This document shows positions 618 to 45,874 of a DNA stretch of 64,000 bases, one piece after another. The stretch comes from an uncultured Candidatus Saccharibacteria bacterium (GTDB taxonomy: Bacteria; Patescibacteriota; UBA1384; JAGGWG01; CAZAJM01), in contig CAZAJM010000001.1 in assembly GCA_964485625.1 (NCBI GenBank), positions 29,803 to 93,802 on the forward strand, in the 5' to 3' direction. Below the pieces are notes generated by a model that searched no databases, was not told the origin of the DNA, and was given only the letters and a program-made list of their open reading frames with translations. Within the stretch, counting starts at the first letter, position 1. Every line of letters begins with the position of its first letter. The position numbers and the translations under genes were made by a program.

Positions 618-1370
618 ATGGCAGGACATTCCAAGTGGGCGAATATTAAGCACCGTAAGGGCAGACAAGATAAGAAAAGGGGTAAGCTTTTTAGTAAGCT
701 ATCTAAGATGATATCAACTGCCGCTAGGGAGGGTGGCGGAGATATTGATATGAACCCTAATTTATCTATGGTAGTAGATAAGGCTAAAGAGGCCAATATG
801 CCTAAAAGTAATATTGAGCGAGCGATTAAGAAAGGCACCGGTGAACTAGAAGGCGAAGAGTATAAGTCGGACAGATTAGAGGCCTACGGCTCAGGCGGAG
901 TCGCCATTATTATCAATATCATGACAGATAATCGTAATAGGACATTATCGGACTTGAAAGGAATTTTGCGTGATCATGAGGGCAGTTTGGCAGAGAAAGG
1001 CTCTGTTGCTTGGAAGTTTGAGAAGAAAGGTAAAATGTTGATAGAGGTAGCCAGCGAAGAAGACCGAGATAGATTACTTGAGCCAATTATTGAGTTTGGT
1101 GCAGAGGACTATCAGGAGTTGGATGACGGTCTGTTGGTCTACACTAGCCCCAGCCAGCTTCATGAAGTAAAGCGGAAGTTAGAACAGAACAAGATTAAGG
1201 CTAAAGAAGCTGAGTTTACCTGGGAGCCCAAGATTGAGGTGAAGATAGAGGATAAAAGTACTGCCAAACGAATACTAAACTTGATGGATGAGCTCGAGGA
1301 CCATGATGATGTTGAGTCGGTCTATGCTGATTTTGATATTGAGGATAAAATATTAAATGAAATTAGATGA
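618..1370 (+). CDS. yebC: YebC/PmpR family DNA-binding transcriptional regulator
   Basis: N-terminus MAGHSKWANIKHRKGRQDKKRGKLFSKL is the YebC signature. 250 aa, and immediately upstream of ruvC as in many bacteria. Confidence 0.9.
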   Translation: MAGHSKWANIKHRKGRQDKKRGKLFSKLSKMISTAAREGGGDIDMNPNLSMVVDKAKEANMPKSNIERAIKKGTGELEGEEYKSDRLEAYGSGGVAIIINIMTDNRNRTLSDLKGILRDHEGSLAEKGSVAWKFEKKGKMLIEVASEEDRDRLLEPIIEFGAEDYQELDDGLLVYTSPSQLHEVKRKLEQNKIKAKEAEFTWEPKIEVKIEDKSTAKRILNLMDELEDHDDVESVYADFDIEDKILNEIR

Positions 1371-1837
1371 AGATCTTAGGAATCGACCCCGGTATCGCTA
1401 GGGTAGGATGGGGGTTGGTTGAAAAAAAGGATGGGCAAGAGAAGTACTTAGATTGTGGACTGATTAGTACTAGTAAAAATACTTCTGAACCGGAGAGATT
1501 AAAGAAGATCTACAAGGCCACTTGTGATATAATAAAGGAGAGTCAGCCAGATCTGGTGGCTATTGAGAAACTTTACTTTTTTAAAAACCAGAAAACTGCT
1601 TTTGTAGTTAGTCAGGCCAGAGGAGTGATAGTTCTAGCGGCGGCTAGCAAAAAAAGAAAGATAAAGAGTTTTACACCTCTACAGATCAAACAATCCGTTA
1701 GTGGTTATGGTCAGGCAACTAAGGCTCAGGTTGGCAATATGGTTAAAGCGATTTTATCTTTAGATAAGGTGCCCAAGCCCGATGATGTTGCCGATGGGCT
1801 GGCCTGTGCGATCTGTGCTAGTAGTAGTGTAAGATAA
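1367..1837 (+). CDS. ruvC: Holliday junction resolvase RuvC
   Basis: MKILGIDPGIARVGWG... is the RuvC N-terminal catalytic Asp motif. 156 aa; start overlaps the yebC stop. Confidence 0.9.
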   Translation: MKILGIDPGIARVGWGLVEKKDGQEKYLDCGLISTSKNTSEPERLKKIYKATCDIIKESQPDLVAIEKLYFFKNQKTAFVVSQARGVIVLAAASKKRKIKSFTPLQIKQSVSGYGQATKAQVGNMVKAILSLDKVPKPDDVADGLACAICASSSVR

Positions 1838-3641: not shown

Positions 3642-5039
3642 TTGATGGCTAGCCCGGACAAAATCTTAGGGATGAACGCTCGTAATTTGATATATATCCG
3701 TCCTAATAATCTAAAACCGGCAACTAGATTAGCTGATGATAAGCTTGGGCACAAGAAACTCCTAGATGACAATGAGTACCCGGTGCCAAATATTTTTGCT
3801 GAGTTTAAAACTCCAGATGATGTCCAACAGTTTGATTGGAAGAACCTACCCAACTCTTTTGTAATTAAGCCGGCTATGGGTTTTGGCGGAGAGGGTATTA
3901 TGGTTGTCTTTGCTAAGACCAAAGAGGGCTGGATTAGAACCGATGGCTCAACAATTGATATCGAGCAGATGAAGATTCACTGCCTAGATATTCTAGATGG
4001 TTCCTACTCCATGCACTCCACTCCGGATGTGGCCTTTATTGAACAGAAAGTAATTACCCACCCGGTCTTTAAGAAGTATACCTATAAAGGAACTCCTGAT
4101 ATTAGAATTATTGTTTTTAATCAGGTGCCGGTGATGGCCATGCTTCGGGTGCCGACAGAAGAGTCCGATGGCAGAGCCAATCTTCATGCCGGAGCACTAG
4201 GCATTGGTATTGAGATAGCCAGTGGCATTACTACCCATGCTATCTACCACGGTCATGAAGTTTCTCGGTTGCCCAGCAATAACAAGGTTAAGCTTCATGG
4301 GCTTAAGATCCCTTATTGGGACGATATGCTCAAGATGTCTTCTGAAATTCAAAAACTTACCGATATTGGCTATTTGGGTTTGGACTTTGTTCTAGACAAG
4401 AACGAAGGGCCAATGATTTTAGAGCTTAACGCTAGGCCAGGGCTTTCAATTCAAAATGCTAATCTGGCTCCACTGCGAGATAGACTAAGAAGAGTAAAGG
4501 GGCTAAAGATAAAAAACTCAACCAAGGCGGTAAGAATTGCCAAAGAGCTTTTTGGTGGAGAGATTGAAAGAGAGGTTGAGGAGGCAACGGGCAGGCCAAT
4601 GGTTGGTTTTGTAGAGAAGGTCAAGATTGAGGGGAGAAAGAAGAAAAAGGCAGAAGTGAAAGCCAAGATAGATACGGGTGCCGGTTTTAGCTCTGTTGAA
4701 AGGGAGTTGGCTAGAGATCTGGGATACAAAAAGTCGATAGAGTTTTTCGACTCTTTTGATCTACCTGAATCGGTTTCGGCCGATGAGGCTAGAAAAATGT
4801 GTGAAGATTATGAACCTAAAATGTTAAAAGACAAACATATTATAGATGTGGCTATAGTTCACTCATCTCATGGCAGTAGTATAAGGCCTGTGATTAAACC
4901 GAAAATCACTCTTTCGGGAAAAACATTCCATGCCAAAGTAAACATATCTAAAAGAGAGCATTTAATGTATCCAATGATCGTTGGCAGAAGAGACTTGAAA
5001 GGTTTTATTGTTAATCCGGAGAAAAGTTTTGTGAAATGA
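3642..5039 (+). CDS. RimK-related alpha-L-glutamate-ligase-like ATP-grasp fused to a C-terminal retropepsin-like (PF05618 'ATP-dependent Zn protease'-type) domain
   Basis: The N-terminal ~300 aa carry ATP-grasp features (KPAMGFGGEGIMVV, ILELNARPG). The C-terminal ~150 aa carry a DTGA aspartyl motif (KIDTGAGFSS) and a ...MIVGRRDLKGFIVNPEKSF tail, as in PF05618. Confidence 0.7.
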   Translation: MMASPDKILGMNARNLIYIRPNNLKPATRLADDKLGHKKLLDDNEYPVPNIFAEFKTPDDVQQFDWKNLPNSFVIKPAMGFGGEGIMVVFAKTKEGWIRTDGSTIDIEQMKIHCLDILDGSYSMHSTPDVAFIEQKVITHPVFKKYTYKGTPDIRIIVFNQVPVMAMLRVPTEESDGRANLHAGALGIGIEIASGITTHAIYHGHEVSRLPSNNKVKLHGLKIPYWDDMLKMSSEIQKLTDIGYLGLDFVLDKNEGPMILELNARPGLSIQNANLAPLRDRLRRVKGLKIKNSTKAVRIAKELFGGEIEREVEEATGRPMVGFVEKVKIEGRKKKKAEVKAKIDTGAGFSSVERELARDLGYKKSIEFFDSFDLPESVSADEARKMCEDYEPKMLKDKHIIDVAIVHSSHGSSIRPVIKPKITLSGKTFHAKVNISKREHLMYPMIVGRRDLKGFIVNPEKSFVK

Positions 5040-39916: not shown

Positions 39917-40723
39917 CTAGACAGAGATATCTCGGCTCTTAAATACTTGCCAAGCGACTACTGAGGTTAATACTATCACTCCGCCAAAGACCAGGTAGGT
40001 ATAGTCTAATACCTCTCCTCTGCCTAGAAGGCTGGTTGGATCAAAGTAGTGGAAAAAGGAGATATATTTTAGATCTTCAAGAGAGTCTTTGAGAGTTGAG
40101 ACAATATTGGCAACATACATCAAAATAATTACACCTACTGAGATAAAACTTACCAGGCCTTTTTTAGATGAAAGAGAGGAGATTAGTATGCCGATGCAGT
40201 AGATGCTCCAGGAAAAGAGCAGTGCTACTAAGGCAAAGGTAAGGTAATTCTCGGTCTGGTAATTAACATCATAGAGAATTGAGAGAGGAATAATTGAGTA
40301 GATAGTAACAAAGACAAAGATAATTAGATTAAAGAGGCCTGACAAGTACTTGGCTAAGAAAAGCTTGGTTCTAGAGATTGGCTGGGCTAGAATAGTCTCG
40401 ATAGTGTTTTTTTCTATCTCTCCGGCAATAGCCGATCCAGCAATGCCGACTCCAATAGCGATGATCATAATGGGCCAGACGAAACTGAACATTTCTGTAG
40501 CCAAGAAATTTTCTACCGAGTCAAAGAACAAACCCCCTTCAAAACCAAAGGCTTCCATGAAGCCATCTGGGAAGGTCTCTAGTAGCTTCTCAAACTCTGG
40601 GGCTTGCTGGGCAAAAGTAGGGAAGAGGCCAACATACATCCAAATAAAAGCGATGGCTGAGGCGATATAGATGCCCAGAGACAGTAACCGGTCTTTAATG
40701 TTTGAAATTAAAATCGGAATCAT
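39917..40723 (-). CDS. ABC-2 type transporter permease
   Basis: 6 TM, 268 aa. Overlaps and lies downstream of the ABC ATPase gene. Confidence 0.7.
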   Translation of the reverse strand: MIPILISNIKDRLLSLGIYIASAIAFIWMYVGLFPTFAQQAPEFEKLLETFPDGFMEAFGFEGGLFFDSVENFLATEMFSFVWPIMIIAIGVGIAGSAIAGEIEKNTIETILAQPISRTKLFLAKYLSGLFNLIIFVFVTIYSIIPLSILYDVNYQTENYLTFALVALLFSWSIYCIGILISSLSSKKGLVSFISVGVIILMYVANIVSTLKDSLEDLKYISFFHYFDPTSLLGRGEVLDYTYLVFGGVIVLTSVVAWQVFKSRDISV

Positions 40724-41595
40724 TTGTAAAATTCTAAAAATATTTTCTCTAAATCAGCATGGTTTATCTCAACGTCTTTGATCTTCTCTTTAGCTAAGAC
40801 TTTTAGCAGAGGGTTAATATCTCCCTTAACGGCTAGATTCATTCGGTGGTCATATTTTTTCTCTACCTTGACGTTTTTTAAGTTGGAGTAGTTAGTTGGC
40901 TTGAAATCTTTTTTAAAATCAATCCTTACCGTGTAGATATGTTTTTTCTTAATCTCGCTTACTTCTTCGATAGCGGCTATCTTGCCCTGTTTGATAATTA
41001 CTACTCGATCACAGATCTTCTCAACTTCATGAAGGTTGTGGGAAGAGAGGAAGATGGTCTTTTTCTCTTCCTTTAGTTCTTCTAGTATTTCATAGATAGC
41101 GTTTTGGAGAATGGGATCTAAACCCAGAGTTGGCTCATCCATAATCATTAAGTCCGGGTCGCTCATCAAGCTTAAAATTAGAGCTAGTTTCTGCTTATTC
41201 CCAGTAGACAGGTTAGCTACTTTCAAGTTGGGGTCAAAATTAAGCCGAGAGATTAGCTCTTTGGGATCTTTTATAATATCTCTAATTTCCTTAATTAGAT
41301 CAATGTGTCTTCTGCCCGTCCAACTCTCATAGAGTCTGGGGCCAGAGGCTAGGTAGCCGATCCTTTCTTTTAAGTTAGTAGTATTAGTTAAAACATCTTT
41401 GCCAAAGATCTCTACGCTTCCACTATTTGGCCTGATAAAATCTAACATACATCTTATGGTAGTAGTCTTGCCAGCACCATTGGGACCTAGAAAACCTAAA
41501 ATCTCACCTTTCTTAACGTCAAAACTAACTCCATCAACGGCCTTTACTTTGCCAAAATGTTTCTTAAGGTCTTTAATTTTAACCACTTCTTTCAT
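40720..41595 (-). CDS. ABC transporter ATP-binding protein
   Basis: Walker A GPNGAGKTT, signature LSTGNKQKL, Walker B IMDEPTLGLD. Confidence 0.9.
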   Translation of the reverse strand: MKEVVKIKDLKKHFGKVKAVDGVSFDVKKGEILGFLGPNGAGKTTTIRCMLDFIRPNSGSVEIFGKDVLTNTTNLKERIGYLASGPRLYESWTGRRHIDLIKEIRDIIKDPKELISRLNFDPNLKVANLSTGNKQKLALILSLMSDPDLMIMDEPTLGLDPILQNAIYEILEELKEEKKTIFLSSHNLHEVEKICDRVVIIKQGKIAAIEEVSEIKKKHIYTVRIDFKKDFKPTNYSNLKNVKVEKKYDHRMNLAVKGDINPLLKVLAKEKIKDVEINHADLEKIFLEFYK

Positions 41596-41706
41596 ACTGA
41601 TAATAATATTACTAAGAAAAGGTTAGTTTGTAAATATCTTCTGTTAGAGGTAAAATTAATTTAAGCAGTACCCAGACAAAATATGAAGAACAAGGAGTGG
41701 GATCCG

Positions 41707-41847
41707 ATGAGCTCTATGCCGGAGACAAAACCAAATGAATATATTCCCCAAATATATACCAAGTGTCCAAATCCTCATTGTGATTATGTTAACAGCTCCA
41801 ATAGGGATCGTTGTCCAAGGTGCAAGAGAGACCTTAAGAGGATATGA
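41707..41847 (+). CDS. Zinc-ribbon micro-protein (46 aa); not in the supplied ORF track
   Basis: AAGGAG RBS 11 nt upstream. MSSMPETKPNEYIPQIYTKCPNPHCDYVNSSNRDRCPRCKRDLKRI with CxxxC...CxxC. Its TGA overlaps the next ATG (ATATGA). Confidence 0.45.
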   Translation: MSSMPETKPNEYIPQIYTKCPNPHCDYVNSSNRDRCPRCKRDLKRI

Positions 41848-42017
41848 GCAGACTTTGCAGTAACTGTGGCTCATATATCACAAATGTCTTAGATAAATAC
41901 TGCTATGGTTGTGGTGCTGAAATAGCAAGCAGGGCAAGCACTAGGAATTGCCCAAGTTGTGGTAATAGCAACTATGTTAGTGACAGCTACTGTAGGGGAT
42001 GTGGTAGGAAGCTTTGA
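41844..42017 (+). CDS. Double zinc-ribbon micro-protein (57 aa); not in the supplied ORF track
   Basis: MSRLCSNCGSYITNVLDKYCYGCGAEIASRASTRNCPSCGNSNYVSDSYCRGCGRKL has four CxxC pairs in the DZR pattern. Confidence 0.5.
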   Translation: MSRLCSNCGSYITNVLDKYCYGCGAEIASRASTRNCPSCGNSNYVSDSYCRGCGRKL

Positions 42018-42082
42018 CAAGTAGTATAATAGCTGTTAGACTCTAGGTCCGTAAAACAACGCACCAGCGGAGGGATGAGCAG

Positions 42083-42208
42083 ATGAACGGCAGCGAGAAG
42101 ATCAGATGCAGGGTTTGTGGGGGACAGATCAATCAGGGGGAGTGCAGTGTTTGCGGGGGATACAATAATAGCAAGCCAGAGCCTCATCCGGATCAGAATT
42201 ACAAGTAG
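42083..42208 (+). CDS. Zinc-ribbon micro-protein (41 aa); not in the supplied ORF track
   Basis: MNGSEKIRCRVCGGQINQGECSVCGGYNNSKPEPHPDQNYK with CxxC...CxxC. Confidence 0.4.
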   Translation: MNGSEKIRCRVCGGQINQGECSVCGGYNNSKPEPHPDQNYK

Positions 42209-42317
42209 CTTAAGTTAAGTAACATTATCTAGACCGAATCATTAGTTCTTTGTTAGCATTCAATACTTGAACTTTTGAACACATTTATTTCGGTCTTCTT
42301 TTTTTTAGACAATATTG

Positions 42318-42623
42318 TTACTCGTTCTTTTTTATAAACTGTTTTAGAGAATCTAGAGCCTGGGCGCCGACCAGCCTATCTACCTCTTTGCCTTTATCAT
42401 AAATAATGAAGGTTGGCACGCCCATAATATTTTCTTGCTCAGAGATGTTGGGGTTTCGGTTAATATTTAGCTTGTAAACTTCAATATCAACCTCTTTTTT
42501 CAATTGTTCTACCACCGGCTCCATCTGCTTGCAAGGTATGCACCATGAACCCCAAAAATCTACTAGAATTTTTTTCTTTGATTCCAGAACCTTCTCTTGG
42601 AAAGTTTTTGAGTTTAATTCCAT
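42318..42623 (-). CDS. Thioredoxin
   Basis: WGSWCIPCKQM active site (WCxPC). 101 aa. Start/stop abuts the SQD1-like gene. Confidence 0.85.
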   Translation of the reverse strand: MELNSKTFQEKVLESKKKILVDFWGSWCIPCKQMEPVVEQLKKEVDIEVYKLNINRNPNISEQENIMGVPTFIIYDKGKEVDRLVGAQALDSLKQFIKKNE

Positions 42624-44161
42624 TACTTGTCAATTAATTTACCCTGGTAGCCTTTCTTCTTTTTCTTTTTATCGGTTTTAACAATCTCTAAAACTTCTGA
42701 ATCTTTCTTCTCTCCCGACCATCTAGTTTTAGGCATTATGGTATGTTTTTTCTCTTTCATTCTGCTAACAATTTCGGGTTTGGTTAGTAGTTTGAAGGTC
42801 TCAGTTATCTCTTCTTCTAGGCCAATCGTTGGTTTAAAGCCAAATCTGTTAGGTAGATTACGAGAGACCACCTCTAAGGGATGGTTCTCGGCTTCTACTC
42901 GAGGGTTTTCTAATCTCTGAATTTTTACATTCTTTTTGAACTTTTTGCCAACCTTAGCGATTGTTTGAGCTAGATCGTTAATTTTGTAGAGGCCTGATAC
43001 CTGATTTACGACATCATACTGGCCCGGTTCAGGAGGTGAGAAGATTAATCTGGCCATACAGTCCATGGCGTCTCTTAAGGCAATAAAGCCTCTTATCTGT
43101 TCGCCACCACCATATACCGTTAAAGGCAGGCCAAGGATGGCTTGAGCAACGAAACGATTAATAACTGTGCCGAACCATTCGTCAATATCGAATCTTGTTC
43201 TTAAGTTTTTATCTTTAGCAACCTCATCGGTGTGGACTCCGTAGATCACTCCCTGCATAACATCATAACTTCTAAGCCACCAATACTTACAGGCCTCATA
43301 AACATTGAAGGTGTCCTGAACTTTTGAGCAATGGTAGAAGCTAACCGGATCTCTGGGAGTTATCTCTCCTCCTAAACTCCACTCTCGGTCATCCCACTTT
43401 AAGGTAGCATCAGAAGGGAACGTACCCTCAAAAAGCGGTCGACCAGTCAGGGGCCCACCGTACTCCCCCATGGTTCCAAGCTTAACCAACGAGCTTTCGG
43501 GCACGATGTCTTTCATCGCCCAGAGCAAGCCCAAGGTGCCTAAGGTGTTGTTGTTTTGGGTCTCTATAGCATGCTCGGCATCGACCATTGAATAAGGAGC
43601 AGAAGGGATTTCTGCATAATGAACAACTGCCTCAGGCTTAACCTCTTCCATAAATTCTCTTAAGTTGTCACCATCCCTAATATCCATCTTACGGAAGTTG
43701 ATATTAATCCCTAATTTTTTTTGAGCGGTATGGAGCCTTTCGGTCATTCTGGCAATAGGAACGATAGTATGGGCGCCTTTTTCCATAACGCAGTCTCGGC
43801 GGGTATAGTTATCGATACCCGATACTTGGCAGCCTAGCTTACCTAGCTTAAGAGCTAGAGTCCAGCCTAAATAACCGTCAACCCCCAAGATCATCACCTT
43901 CATATTTTTAAGCTGATAGCCGTAAGGGCCTTTCTGCCATTGAGGACATTGTTTAAAAGTAATGGTTGGTTCAAAGTGACCTAAATCAGGTCTTCTTCGA
44001 CATTCAATCATAACCTGTTGATCTTTTTGATCTTTGATTTTCTCTCTTGACTGGCCACAGGCAGTAAAGTCTACGTTGCCGATAATTTTTGCTGCCGGGC
44101 AGTTCCAGCAAGTCTTGTTAGCATTTTTTGCCACTGTACTTTTCTTTTTTCTTTTTGCCAT
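42623..44161 (-). CDS. UDP-sulfoquinovose synthase (SQD1/Agl3)-like SDR with a Cys-rich, Lys-rich N-terminal extension
   Basis: SQD1-specific block SFYHCSKVQDTFNVYEACKYWWLRSYDVMQGVIYGV (cf. plant SQD1 [36 protein letters not shown]) and NPRVEAENH (SQD1 NPRVEAEEH). GxxGxxG Rossmann ILGVDGYLG. N-terminal ~85 aa carry CWNC...C...C...C. K-rich C-terminal tail. Confidence 0.8.
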   Translation of the reverse strand: MAKRKKKSTVAKNANKTCWNCPAAKIIGNVDFTACGQSREKIKDQKDQQVMIECRRRPDLGHFEPTITFKQCPQWQKGPYGYQLKNMKVMILGVDGYLGWTLALKLGKLGCQVSGIDNYTRRDCVMEKGAHTIVPIARMTERLHTAQKKLGININFRKMDIRDGDNLREFMEEVKPEAVVHYAEIPSAPYSMVDAEHAIETQNNNTLGTLGLLWAMKDIVPESSLVKLGTMGEYGGPLTGRPLFEGTFPSDATLKWDDREWSLGGEITPRDPVSFYHCSKVQDTFNVYEACKYWWLRSYDVMQGVIYGVHTDEVAKDKNLRTRFDIDEWFGTVINRFVAQAILGLPLTVYGGGEQIRGFIALRDAMDCMARLIFSPPEPGQYDVVNQVSGLYKINDLAQTIAKVGKKFKKNVKIQRLENPRVEAENHPLEVVSRNLPNRFGFKPTIGLEEEITETFKLLTKPEIVSRMKEKKHTIMPKTRWSGEKKDSEVLEIVKTDKKKKKKGYQGKLIDK

Positions 44162-44172
44162 AAGATGATTTA

Positions 44173-45456
44173 TTAGATTCTATTTATTATTGAAACTATA
44201 TCTTCTACTTGGGGCTTGTCGATTACTTTAATTTTTTTTGATCTGACCAACAGAAAAGCCTGGCTGTTATGTACTCCTGTAAGAAAAGGTCTGGAATATT
44301 TTTGATTGTCTAGTTTGGCTAGGAGATTGAAACCTCGGTTTGGGACCAAGATTAAATCAGGGGCAGATCCTACTTGATCACCTCTATAGATCTCTTCCTT
44401 TCTATATATCTTCTTAATTACCTTCCTGTCCTTGACCTCTATTTTATCAAATAATTGTTCTAATTTATTGATAATTGTCAACCTCTGGTCCCCATTTTTA
44501 ACCTGGCCGGAGGGGTAGTTATCAGCATAATGAAGATATATTCTGCCATGCTCTAGGGCAAAAGCTTGTGAGTTAGCTTTGATGTCAGTTAGGCTAGAGC
44601 CTGAACCGATATCTAGAAAACCGGTTTCTATTAAGTACTGGTTTAGATTAACATCATAGTCGGCATTTTCCATACCGTGATCGGACAAGATTAAAAGAGG
44701 AGTGTTGGCAGAACTTCGTTCAACAATTTTTTTAATAGTTTGATCAACTAGTTTGAAATACTTAAGAAAACTTTGATGGTAGTCACTCTGTTTGCCTTCC
44801 CAATCATGCCAACGGTGATGGCCAAGTCGATCGCTGCCTGTGATAACGTACATTAGAATTTGAGGAGATAGCTTATCCAGATAGTTAAAAAGAGTTTCTT
44901 CTCGCTTAAGATGTACCTTTTCTAGTTGATTATATAGCAGGTAGGGTGATTGCCTTACTTTCTCTGAATCTAAGTCAACTTGGTAGTCAATCTTTTTTAG
45001 ATAACTAAGTTCACTACTTGGATAGACTGCTTTTTTCAAAGTGGGTGAGACAAAACCTGAAATATGAATACCATTTATTTTTTGAGCCGGATAGGTGGCA
45101 GGGACGTTGATAATTAGATATTTTTTGTCTTTTCTTTCTTGCCAAAAAGGTTTGGCTTTTAAAGATAGAAAATTAGGAAAGGAGGTAGTGTAGGTACCCG
45201 GGATTATACCCGTAAAACCAAAGATTCCGTGTTCTCCGGGATTCTTGCCGGTAATGATTGAGCTCCAGGAGACAGAAGAGATAAAAGGAATGGAAGAGTC
45301 CATTTTTGAAAAAAGCGACTCTTTCTTAAGCTTAGAGAAAAATGGCATCACTCCCTGATCAGAGAGCCTGTCAATTAAGCTATATGGAACACCATCGATG
45401 CCAATAATGATCTTTTCCAGATTATCCATACGAACATTATATCTTCTTAGAAACAA
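44173..45456 (-). CDS. Alkaline-phosphatase-superfamily type I phosphodiesterase/nucleotide pyrophosphatase-like protein
   Basis: IIGIDGVPYSLI metal-site motif near the N-terminus and a later His-rich region (GHHRWHDW). 427 aa. The true start may be an internal Met (MDNLEKII). Confidence 0.7.
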   Translation of the reverse strand: MFLRRYNVRMDNLEKIIIGIDGVPYSLIDRLSDQGVMPFFSKLKKESLFSKMDSSIPFISSVSWSSIITGKNPGEHGIFGFTGIIPGTYTTSFPNFLSLKAKPFWQERKDKKYLIINVPATYPAQKINGIHISGFVSPTLKKAVYPSSELSYLKKIDYQVDLDSEKVRQSPYLLYNQLEKVHLKREETLFNYLDKLSPQILMYVITGSDRLGHHRWHDWEGKQSDYHQSFLKYFKLVDQTIKKIVERSSANTPLLILSDHGMENADYDVNLNQYLIETGFLDIGSGSSLTDIKANSQAFALEHGRIYLHYADNYPSGQVKNGDQRLTIINKLEQLFDKIEVKDRKVIKKIYRKEEIYRGDQVGSAPDLILVPNRGFNLLAKLDNQKYSRPFLTGVHNSQAFLLVRSKKIKVIDKPQVEDIVSIINRI

Positions 45457-45562: not shown

Positions 45563-45874
45563 ATGTCTAAACCAAAAGTAGGGTTTAATAAAGAGAACAT
45601 CGACAAATGTATCTGCCCAGATTGTCCGGTTCAGGGAGAGTGTATGGAAGAGGCAAGGGCTAAGCTAAAAGTGAAGAAAGAAAAGGGTGTCAAACCGGAA
45701 CCAAAAGATTTAAAGCCAATTGGTATGTACTGCGCTCAGGCGGTAGGAACAACGAGTTGTGACGATTTGGATGAAGACAAAGGTTGTATCTGCCCCAGCT
45801 GTCCGCTCTGGAGTGAGAACGACTTACAAGAAACTTACTACTGTTTTAAAGAAGAGGCCGATAGAACTAAATAG
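45563..45874 (+). CDS. Small Cys-rich protein with duplicated CICPxCP motif (DUF2769-like)
   Basis: CICPDCPVQGEC and CICPSCPLWSEN are repeated. 103 aa. Confidence 0.45.
   Translation: MSKPKVGFNKENIDKCICPDCPVQGECMEEARAKLKVKKEKGVKPEPKDLKPIGMYCAQAVGTTSCDDLDEDKGCICPSCPLWSENDLQETYYCFKEEADRTK

Follow-up and report, generated by a model that had tools for sequence, protein, structure and literature searches.

Two of three small open reading frames (ORFs) on the plus strand between an ABC ATPase gene and a thioredoxin gene, ORF2 and ORF3, are conserved microprotein genes that annotation has missed. The third, ORF1, is a plausible young addition to the cluster. Taken as a whole, the locus is probably best explained as an overlooked plus-strand microprotein cluster, arranged in two units, whose products would act as metal-stabilised binding modules.

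The locus and its small ORFs

The window, that is, the whole stretch of 64,000 nucleotides that was analysed, was read with the standard genetic code. Its wider gene content includes uvrA, uvrB, a short uvrC, an LCP transferase and an M23 peptidase. The initial annotation had reported three plus-strand micro-ORFs of 46, 57 and 41 aa together with two antisense ORFs, and all five are present in the sequence and in the list of its ORFs. It placed the first start at 41682, one base ahead of an upstream ATG, and this position was not upheld, while the length of 46 aa is correct when counted from the ATG at 41707. The good AAGGAG ribosome-binding site of ORF1 and the overlap of its stop with the start of ORF2 are both as claimed, as read from the sequence. 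The genes, ORFs and translation signals of the gap are listed below.

40720-41595, minus strand: ABC ATPase gene, one border of the gap
41656..41874, minus strand: antisense ORF of 72 aa, judged spurious; no Pfam match and the lowest codon-usage score among the local ORFs
41692-41697, plus strand: AAGGAG, Shine-Dalgarno sequence of ORF1, 9 nt upstream of ATG 41707
41707..41847, plus strand: ORF1, 46 aa; the alternative ATG at 41683 (41683..41847) gives 54 aa
41842-41847, plus strand: ATATGA, the stop/start overlap (ATGA) of ORF1 and ORF2
41844..42017, plus strand: ORF2, 57 aa; a predicted double zinc ribbon (DZR) that makes up the whole microprotein, with four CxxC knuckles
41987..42187, minus strand: antisense ORF of 66 aa, judged spurious; no significant Pfam match
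42069-42074, plus strand: GGAGGG, Shine-Dalgarno sequence of ORF3, 8 nt upstream of its ATG
42083..42208, plus strand: ORF3, 41 aa, single C4 zinc-ribbon-like protein (CxxCG-x8-CxxCG) of a clade-specific family
42318-42623, minus strand: thioredoxin gene, the other border of the gap

The three ORFs stand out from the rest of the window. A search for the pattern C-x(2-4)-C-x(6-25)-C-x(2-4)-C among all 97 ATG-initiated ORFs of 35-80 aa, in six frames across the whole window, returned three, and these are ORF1, ORF2 and ORF3. Sixty second-order Markov simulations gave a mean of 0.08 such ORFs per 64 kb and a maximum of 1, a chance rate of 6e-4 per ORF. The clustering of three CxxC ORFs is far above chance.

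None of the three genes is annotated. Gene calls on the 100%-identical public contigs L081 and L091 (two runs) placed nothing between the thioredoxin and ABC ATPase genes, and an exact look-up of the three proteins in a collection of 15 billion proteins found none of them. Word-indexed protein searches with the ORF2 sequence and with the ORF2 alignment gave no match, and a viral scan yielded two weak, generic zinc-ribbon matches.

Conservation and coding capacity of ORF2 and ORF3

Five related metagenomic genomes (L083, L084/L085, L086/L087, L088 and L096) were reached through homologues of the ABC ATPase at 63-80% identity, and the conservation statistics given here are thin, resting on five or six related genomes. 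Homologues at 58% identity or less (56-58%) lack the micro-ORF module. Named database relatives of the ABC ATPase belong to Patescibacteria, Berkelbacteria or Woykebacteria, which suggests that the window comes from a reduced-genome bacterium of this kind. When the genome collection was scanned with the neighbouring epimerase, 0 of the 80 loci retrieved had micro-ORFs; the epimerase is a poor guide to relatives because it is part of a widely transferred cassette.

Orthologues of ORF2 (57-59 aa, 35-49% identity) occupy the same place and orientation in L083, L084 and L086. The expectation that the spacing of its cysteines would persist in relatives was borne out, as 8/8 are invariant across the four genomes. 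They form the pairs C5/C8, C20/C23, C36/C39 and C50/C53, that is, two consecutive ribbons with two knuckles each. The initial annotation had called this product a double zinc ribbon with four CxxC pairs, and family profiles agree. ORF2 matches the Pfam family DZR (PF12773) with 32.3 bits (cut-off 27.3; E 1.1e-7) over profile positions 1-45 of 45, and Zn_Ribbon_1 (PF13240) with 31.4 bits (cut-off 25). ORF2 and its three orthologues (4/4) match DZR end to end, with a best E of 1.6e-8; no DZR match was found for ORF1 or ORF3. These matches show ORF2 to be a predicted stand-alone double zinc ribbon. An AlphaFold model computed without an alignment was unusable (pLDDT 46.7).

The pattern of substitution in ORF2 is that of a protein. 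Values of pN range from 0.16 to 0.48 against a pS of about 0.7-0.8, at which synonymous sites are saturated, and a proper dN/dS is not computable because of this saturation. For the pair L084-L086, pN/pS is 0.21 for ORF2 and 0.22 for the adjacent ABC ATPase. Identity by codon position across the four genomes is 0.57/0.64/0.45, the third position being the least conserved, and each of the other five frames across ORF2 contains stops in every one of the four genomes.

ORF3 has orthologues of 41-63 aa in L083, L084, L086 and L088, and L096 carries a related form of 48 aa with a second ribbon. Conservation of its cysteines was likewise confirmed, with C9, C12, C21 and C24 (the pairs C9/C12 and C21/C24) and also G25 invariant across six sequences. 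Every indel in the alignment consists of whole codons, identity by codon position is 0.49/0.57/0.35, and the sense frame alone is open in all five genomes. Motifs resembling GGAGG also precede ORF3 in L083, L084, L086 and L088. These data demonstrate that ORF2 and ORF3 code for proteins, and that purifying selection acts on both within a small, probably patescibacterial clade.

The ORF3 protein had no significant match in Pfam, NCBIfam, PHROG or the PDB. A single-sequence AlphaFold model reached a pLDDT of 69.4 overall, with a beta-hairpin and a short helix at pLDDT 75-85 in the N-terminal two thirds. When this model was compared with the PDB by Foldseek, no match had an E under 1.3, and all were generic zinc fingers. 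Together with the cysteine pattern, these searches show ORF3 to be a predicted four-cysteine ribbon of an undescribed small family, without a database entry.

The coding strand can be decided by the same comparisons. The proposal that the plus strand, rather than the antisense strand, is coding holds for ORF2 and ORF3, where the cysteines are conserved and the antisense frames are broken: none of the latter is open throughout across the orthologues of either gene. The start of the 72-aa antisense ORF falls opposite conserved ORF2 codons. The initial annotation had named conservation of the antisense ORFs and loss of the plus-strand cysteines as the outcome that would speak against it, and the reverse is seen in related genomes. 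The antisense ORFs are judged spurious.

Codon usage adds little to this picture. All three ORFs have neutral scores that do not exceed the 5th percentile of true genes, and equal or higher values are reached by two chance ORFs, the log-odds measure being without power here to separate coding from non-coding sequence. Weak codon usage might be expected of cysteine-rich microproteins.

ORF1 and its initiation signals

ORF1 has a single zinc-ribbon-like set of cysteines (C-x4-C-x11-C-x2-C) and a different history from its neighbours. Conservation in related genomes did not extend to it: no orthologue was found in L083, L084, L086, L088 or L096, and no profile match lies elsewhere. In L083, L084 and L086, the ABC start and the ORF2 start are only ~100 bp apart, with no ORF1 between them. 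The family search returned no match above threshold, the Pfam family IBR being the only, sub-threshold, result. Local similarity between ORF1 and the ribbons of ORF2 is suggestive and not significant (p about 0.04-0.09), and at this level an origin of ORF1 as a duplicate of an ORF2 ribbon was not accepted.

A comparison of the start regions is more informative. P1 (a promoter-like site described below), the leader, AAGGAG and ATG 41707 of the window align with the promoter, leader, Shine-Dalgarno sequence and start codon of ORF2 in L083. Because its promoter, leader, Shine-Dalgarno sequence and ATG occupy the place of the ORF2 signals in relatives, ORF1 looks like a lineage-specific insertion (~140 bp) behind ancestral initiation signals. 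On the same alignment, the 46-aa form is preferred and ORF1 is probably translated; CPNPHCDYVNSSNR is a predicted tryptic peptide of its product.

It is possible, if somewhat unlikely, that ORF1 is not a gene, and that the 165-bp insert specific to this lineage, between P1 and ORF2, either lengthens the 5' leader or is a partial duplicate in decay, with only ORF2 and ORF3 functional. The complete lack of orthologues, family matches that all fall below threshold, the non-significant resemblance to ORF2 and a codon-usage score of about 0 would fit such an insert. It would leave to coincidence, however, a four-cysteine ribbon pattern whose chance frequency among small ORFs is only about 6e-4, a strong and ideally spaced Shine-Dalgarno sequence with an ATG at the place of the ancestral initiation signals, and an ATGA end that falls exactly on the ORF2 start. 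Stop/start overlaps of the ATGA type are the usual arrangement for translational coupling. If ORF1 is a translated insertion, as preferred here, its ending in ATGA at the ORF2 start makes it plausible that ORF2 translation depends on translation of ORF1.

Transcription signals and the 3' hairpin

A consensus scan and RNA folding point to the following candidate transcription signals around the three ORFs.

41606..41634, minus strand: promoter-like site of the ABC-2 operon, TTTACA-17-TAATAT, from the consensus scan only
41628..41656, plus strand: P1, promoter-like site TTGTAA-17-TAAAAT upstream of ORF1-ORF2, from the consensus scan
42014..42042, plus strand: P2, promoter-like block TTGACA-17-TAGACT with TG ahead of the -10, the best site of the consensus scan (10/12 matches)
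42025-42030, plus strand: TATAAT embedded in P2
42231..42306, plus strand: long bulged hairpin followed by a U-run, 3' of ORF3; closing stem AGACCGAA...UUCGGUCU, inner stem AGUUC/GAACU

The TTG.AAA and TAAAAT elements of P1 align with DNA upstream of ORF2 in L083, L084 and L086. Letter by letter, the palindromic TTTGTAAA is common to the -35 of P1 and to that of the divergent ABC-2 promoter-like site. The stop codon TGA of ORF2 sits within the TTGACA of P2, and the P2 block is kept in 5/5 genomes with ORF3 (window, L083, L084, L086 and L088). From these matches, we infer that P1, P2 and the ABC-2 site would function as promoters. Shine-Dalgarno-like motifs precede 17/46 long ORFs, against 13% of random sites.

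Downstream of ORF3, the predicted hairpin combines an 8-bp closing stem with an inner stem (-15.6 kcal/mol, z -4.3) and is followed by UCUUUUUUUU. Its architecture is identical in five genomes folded singly, with z from -3.6 to -7.1 and 0/200 shuffles as stable. The closing stem shows one compensatory GC to AU change, and in L086 the inner stem AGUUC/GAACU becomes AGUUU/AAACU (CG to UA). Four genomes share the 16-mer at 42232-42247 without a mismatch. The ABC ATPases of the genomes that share this 16-mer of the ~75-nt hairpin are only 63-80% identical.

A stable hairpin, a U-run directly after it and a position at the 3' end of a gene are the marks of an intrinsic terminator, and all are found here. 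The hairpin is read as a putative terminator of ORF3, with a sequence conservation beyond what termination alone needs. A simple terminator scan missed it because its interior is unusually long (about 50 nt). An Rfam search of positions 41000-43000 at E up to 1 returned a spurious mir-14 match at 41037-41075 and nothing else, and the three matches of a conserved 19-mer of the hairpin in a metagenome scan, all in unrelated contexts, are due to chance.

In the proposed arrangement, the plus-strand cluster in the 41.6-42.3 kb gap would comprise two units. P1 would drive ORF1 and ORF2, linked by their ATGA overlap, and P2, overlapping the ORF2 stop, would drive ORF3, with the transcript ending at the conserved hairpin and U-run. 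The initial annotation had seen a tandem array; the ORFs are indeed adjacent, but the single array gives way to two predicted transcription units of differing age.

Properties of the products and possible functions

The products are hydrophilic, mostly with a pI of 7.5-9.5, and have no hydrophobic or membrane segment and no catalytic motif. Most products, among them all three of the window, are basic, and cysteine makes up 9-14% of these three. On the proposed mechanism, each protein would take the shape of a rigid, mostly basic and hydrophilic knob, organised by one or two Zn(Cys)4 centres, and would act by binding a partner, whether nucleic acid or protein, without catalysis. We infer from composition and motifs that they may function as small, basic, soluble, metal-stabilised binding modules.

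The genomic neighbourhood offers one consistent clue to a more specific role. In 6/6 related loci the module adjoins the divergently transcribed ABC-2 exporter operon, which encodes the ABC ATPase and an ABC-2 permease. The other flank varies: a thioredoxin gene lies convergent to ORF3 in the window and L083, and unrelated genes lie downstream elsewhere. As the ABC-2 operon is the sole conserved partner, and its promoter region overlaps P1, the likeliest specific role would be one tied to the transporter. That the microproteins control the ABC-2 transporter or associate with it is nevertheless a tentative and unlikely proposal, and the linkage may reflect no more than shared gene order in a narrow clade; more distant ABC homologues lack the module. 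A more elaborate version is improbable, in which the cluster would be a clade-specific device, the zinc-ribbon microproteins acting as metal-dependent switches or accessory subunits of the ABC-2 exporter (with its shared -35), and the ORF3 3' hairpin serving also as a stable small RNA derived from the 3' UTR or as a protein-binding site.

The varying flank bears on another idea, namely that the products handle metal or redox equivalents, as zinc buffer, chaperone or thiol switch, in partnership with the neighbouring thioredoxin. Their cysteine content and the convergent thioredoxin gene in the window and L083 lend this some appeal. Yet the thioredoxin is absent beside the module in L084, L086 and L088, and belongs to a phosphodiesterase-epimerase-thioredoxin cassette that is common to many unrelated archaea and bacteria without micro-ORFs. 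The cysteine spacing is also that of structural zinc knuckles, not of metallothionein CxC or CC clusters, and such a metal- or redox-handling role appears quite improbable.

Small, cysteine-rich products encoded next to the ABC-2 transporter genes in every related locus might also be secreted or modified peptides, such as RiPP or bacteriocin-like precursors, exported by that transporter. This is very improbable. The genes are divergent from the transporter and not co-transcribed with it, and there is no maturase, radical-SAM enzyme or peptidase-domain transporter nearby. The hydrophilic, basic products have no leader, double-glycine motif or signal peptide; ORF2 fits the DZR profile over its full length, and neither SCIFF nor any other RiPP-precursor family is among the NCBIfam matches.

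Finally, the view that the region is non-coding or coded on the minus strand, its plus-strand ORFs due to chance and its conserved blocks only regulatory DNA or RNA, can point to gene callers that placed nothing here (or, in L083, a wrong-frame 43-aa gene), to weak codon-usage scores and to the conserved promoter-like and hairpin elements, but is hardly tenable and largely refuted by cysteine conservation, pN/pS and frame data, given that cysteine codons are invariant at saturated divergence, third positions vary as in coding DNA, indels are whole codons, plus-strand frames alone stay free of stops in every genome, ORF2 scores above the DZR cut-off and the antisense ORFs have no family match.

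Significance

The locus shows how microprotein genes drop out of the annotation of metagenome-assembled genomes, with a longer antisense ORF listed instead. Work on small zinc-ribbon proteins has centred on haloarchaea and methanogens. The bacterial set described here, conserved in a reduced-genome and probably patescibacterial lineage, provides candidates for the small number of regulators or adaptors that such organisms retain. If its predicted origin is correct, ORF1 would illustrate in nature how a microprotein gene can be gained when DNA is inserted downstream of translation signals already present. In practice the outcome is modest: ORF2 and ORF3 should be annotated, ORF1 flagged and the antisense ORFs discarded. 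The main value lies in annotation, and in candidates for the study of small proteins.

Comparison with known families and systems

Several zinc-binding families were considered and set aside. An anti-sigma-like role had been among the candidates of the initial annotation, but none of ORF1-ORF3 contains the HxxxCxxC motif of the ZAS type, and no anti-sigma family is among the matches listed, which for Pfam are the best 25 of 46 ORF2 matches. No histidine lies four residues before any CxxC, and no sigma factor gene is adjacent; ZAS was rejected. The adaptors and transcriptional micro-regulators that the initial annotation also proposed would be candidate roles. Rubredoxins were rejected as well, since NCBIfam rubredoxin-like matches are sub-threshold (16.1 bits against 45 and 15.2 against 32); in Pfam, no rubredoxin family is among the matches listed. 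SCIFF or ranthipeptide precursors gave no NCBIfam match, and the genes around the module encode an ABC ATPase, ABC-2 permease, thioredoxin and epimerase.

The best PDB and NCBIfam matches, which are not significant (E 0.002-0.3), are to the zinc-ribbon ribosomal proteins eL40, bL33, bL32 and eL37, with which the ORFs share knuckles of the C-x2-C-x2-N-x-C-R-x-C-G type. Membership of these families was rejected on account of those E values and the lack of a ribosomal gene context. The PDB profile search returned nothing below E = 0.06, and an HVO_2753-like chain, 9fhl_C, appeared at E 2.5.

ORF2 resembles DZR and Zn_Ribbon_1 proteins in its four CxxC knuckles and in the N and R residues typical of such ribbons. 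It differs from the DZR proteins found in that the domain is the whole protein of 57 aa. In a HMMER scan of 1.84 billion representatives, the best 150 matches are 87-1508 aa long, mostly several hundred residues, with several DZR stretches, and no stand-alone DZR protein of ~57 aa or orthologue is among them.

Close parallels are found among the C(P)XCG zinc-finger microproteins of Haloferax volcanii, which are shorter than 70 aa and include HVO_2753 and HVO_0758. HVO_2753 has four motifs and an NMR structure (PDB 6YDH), and deletions of C(P)XCG genes affect stress adaptation, swarming and biofilm formation (PMC11241148, PMC6562870, PMC10716476). The motif is not proof of zinc binding: zinc is absent from 5/14 predicted Haloferax C(P)XCG microproteins, and HVO_2753 leaves one of its two pockets empty of it (PMC11241148). 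ORF2 is like HVO_2753 in size. In the window it has four CxxCG motifs (CSNCG, CYGCG, CPSCG and CRGCG), as HVO_2753 does, but their G is not conserved, several being swapped in orthologues (CAGCN, CSKCQ and CPNCQ). Both are hydrophilic stand-alone ribbons, as predicted for ORF2. It is not a member of the family HVO_2753_ZBP (PF07754), because its 18.7 bits (E 0.0015) fall below the cut-off of 33.2; 1/4 orthologues matches this family at all. ORF3, with two motifs, is like the one-domain Haloferax C(P)XCG proteins. The Haloferax proteins are archaeal, whereas those of the window are bacterial.

A further parallel concerns gene arrangement, not sequence. Brz of Halobacterium salinarum is a small zinc-finger regulator encoded beside its target bop, upstream and in the same orientation (PMC2253796). 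The microproteins of the window are similarly encoded right beside an operon that they might control, although here the module is divergent from the ABC-2 operon. ORF2, ORF3 and, if translated, ORF1 would be further examples of known C4 zinc-ribbon microproteins.

Conserved hairpin downstream of ORF3

The third of the three adjacent Cys-rich micro-ORFs (ORF3) is followed by a hairpin and U-run, which recur in related metagenomic loci found through homologues of the neighbouring ABC ATPase:

Window 42231-42306: hairpin and U-run, 3' of ORF3
L083 ~4450-4523, minus strand: same element
L084 ~4373-4446, minus strand: same element
L086 ~4382-4449, minus strand: same element
L088 ~1125-1197, minus strand: same element

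Its conservation exceeds that of the coding regions. Within this element, GACCGAAUCAUUAGUU shows no differences among four genomes, and two stems carry compensatory changes. No match to an Rfam family was found for the hairpin, which may have a role beyond that of a terminator.

Variation and annotation of the micro-ORFs

The locus in L088 retains ORF3, the hairpin, and P2 (the promoter-like block that spans the ORF2 stop elsewhere), while ORF2, the double zinc ribbon, is not recognisable in the AT-rich 210 bp from P2 to the ABC gene (1405-1617, minus strand). At least one lineage can thus do without ORF2. In L083, a public gene call (4661-4792) follows the wrong frame: this ORF of 43 aa overlaps both the spacer and the last part of the genuine ORF2 orthologue, and exemplifies how gene finders mis-handle the micro-ORF locus. 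The ORF1/ORF2 junction is spanned in SRR15425350. The SRR15425351 assembly breaks exactly there, at window ~41840-41849 (the end of L082 and the start of L092); low coverage, or differences between strains, at the ORF1 insertion might account for the break.

Shared promoter-like region

The micro-ORF unit and the divergent ABC-2 exporter operon adjoin one region:

Window 41606-41656: back-to-back promoter-like sites, micro-ORF unit (+) and ABC-2 operon (-)

The palindromic TTTGTAAA provides a -35 common to both sites. The ABC ATG at 41595 lacks a Shine-Dalgarno sequence, and a transcript from the predicted promoter-like site would give this start a leader of just a few nucleotides.

Neighbouring genes

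Small Cys-rich genes are grouped in the micro-ORF neighbourhood, which also adjoins a larger cassette:

L084 4006-4316, minus strand: two further Cys-rich ORFs (49 aa), just downstream of the ORF3 hairpin
Window 45563-45874: DUF2769 protein (103 aa), 3.4 kb from the micro-ORFs
Window 42318-45456: cassette with SQD1-like NAD epimerase and thioredoxin

The L084 ORFs look DUF2769-like; L088 has a called gene of 49 aa in a similar position. The epimerase (512 aa, with Cys in its N-terminal extension) was compared across 80 loci from a genome scan (L001-L080), where it shares 63-79% identity among highly varied archaea and bacteria. Thioredoxin directly follows it in almost all 80, and a type I phosphodiesterase also belongs to the cassette in the window and L083. 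This epimerase-thioredoxin cassette looks widely transferred.
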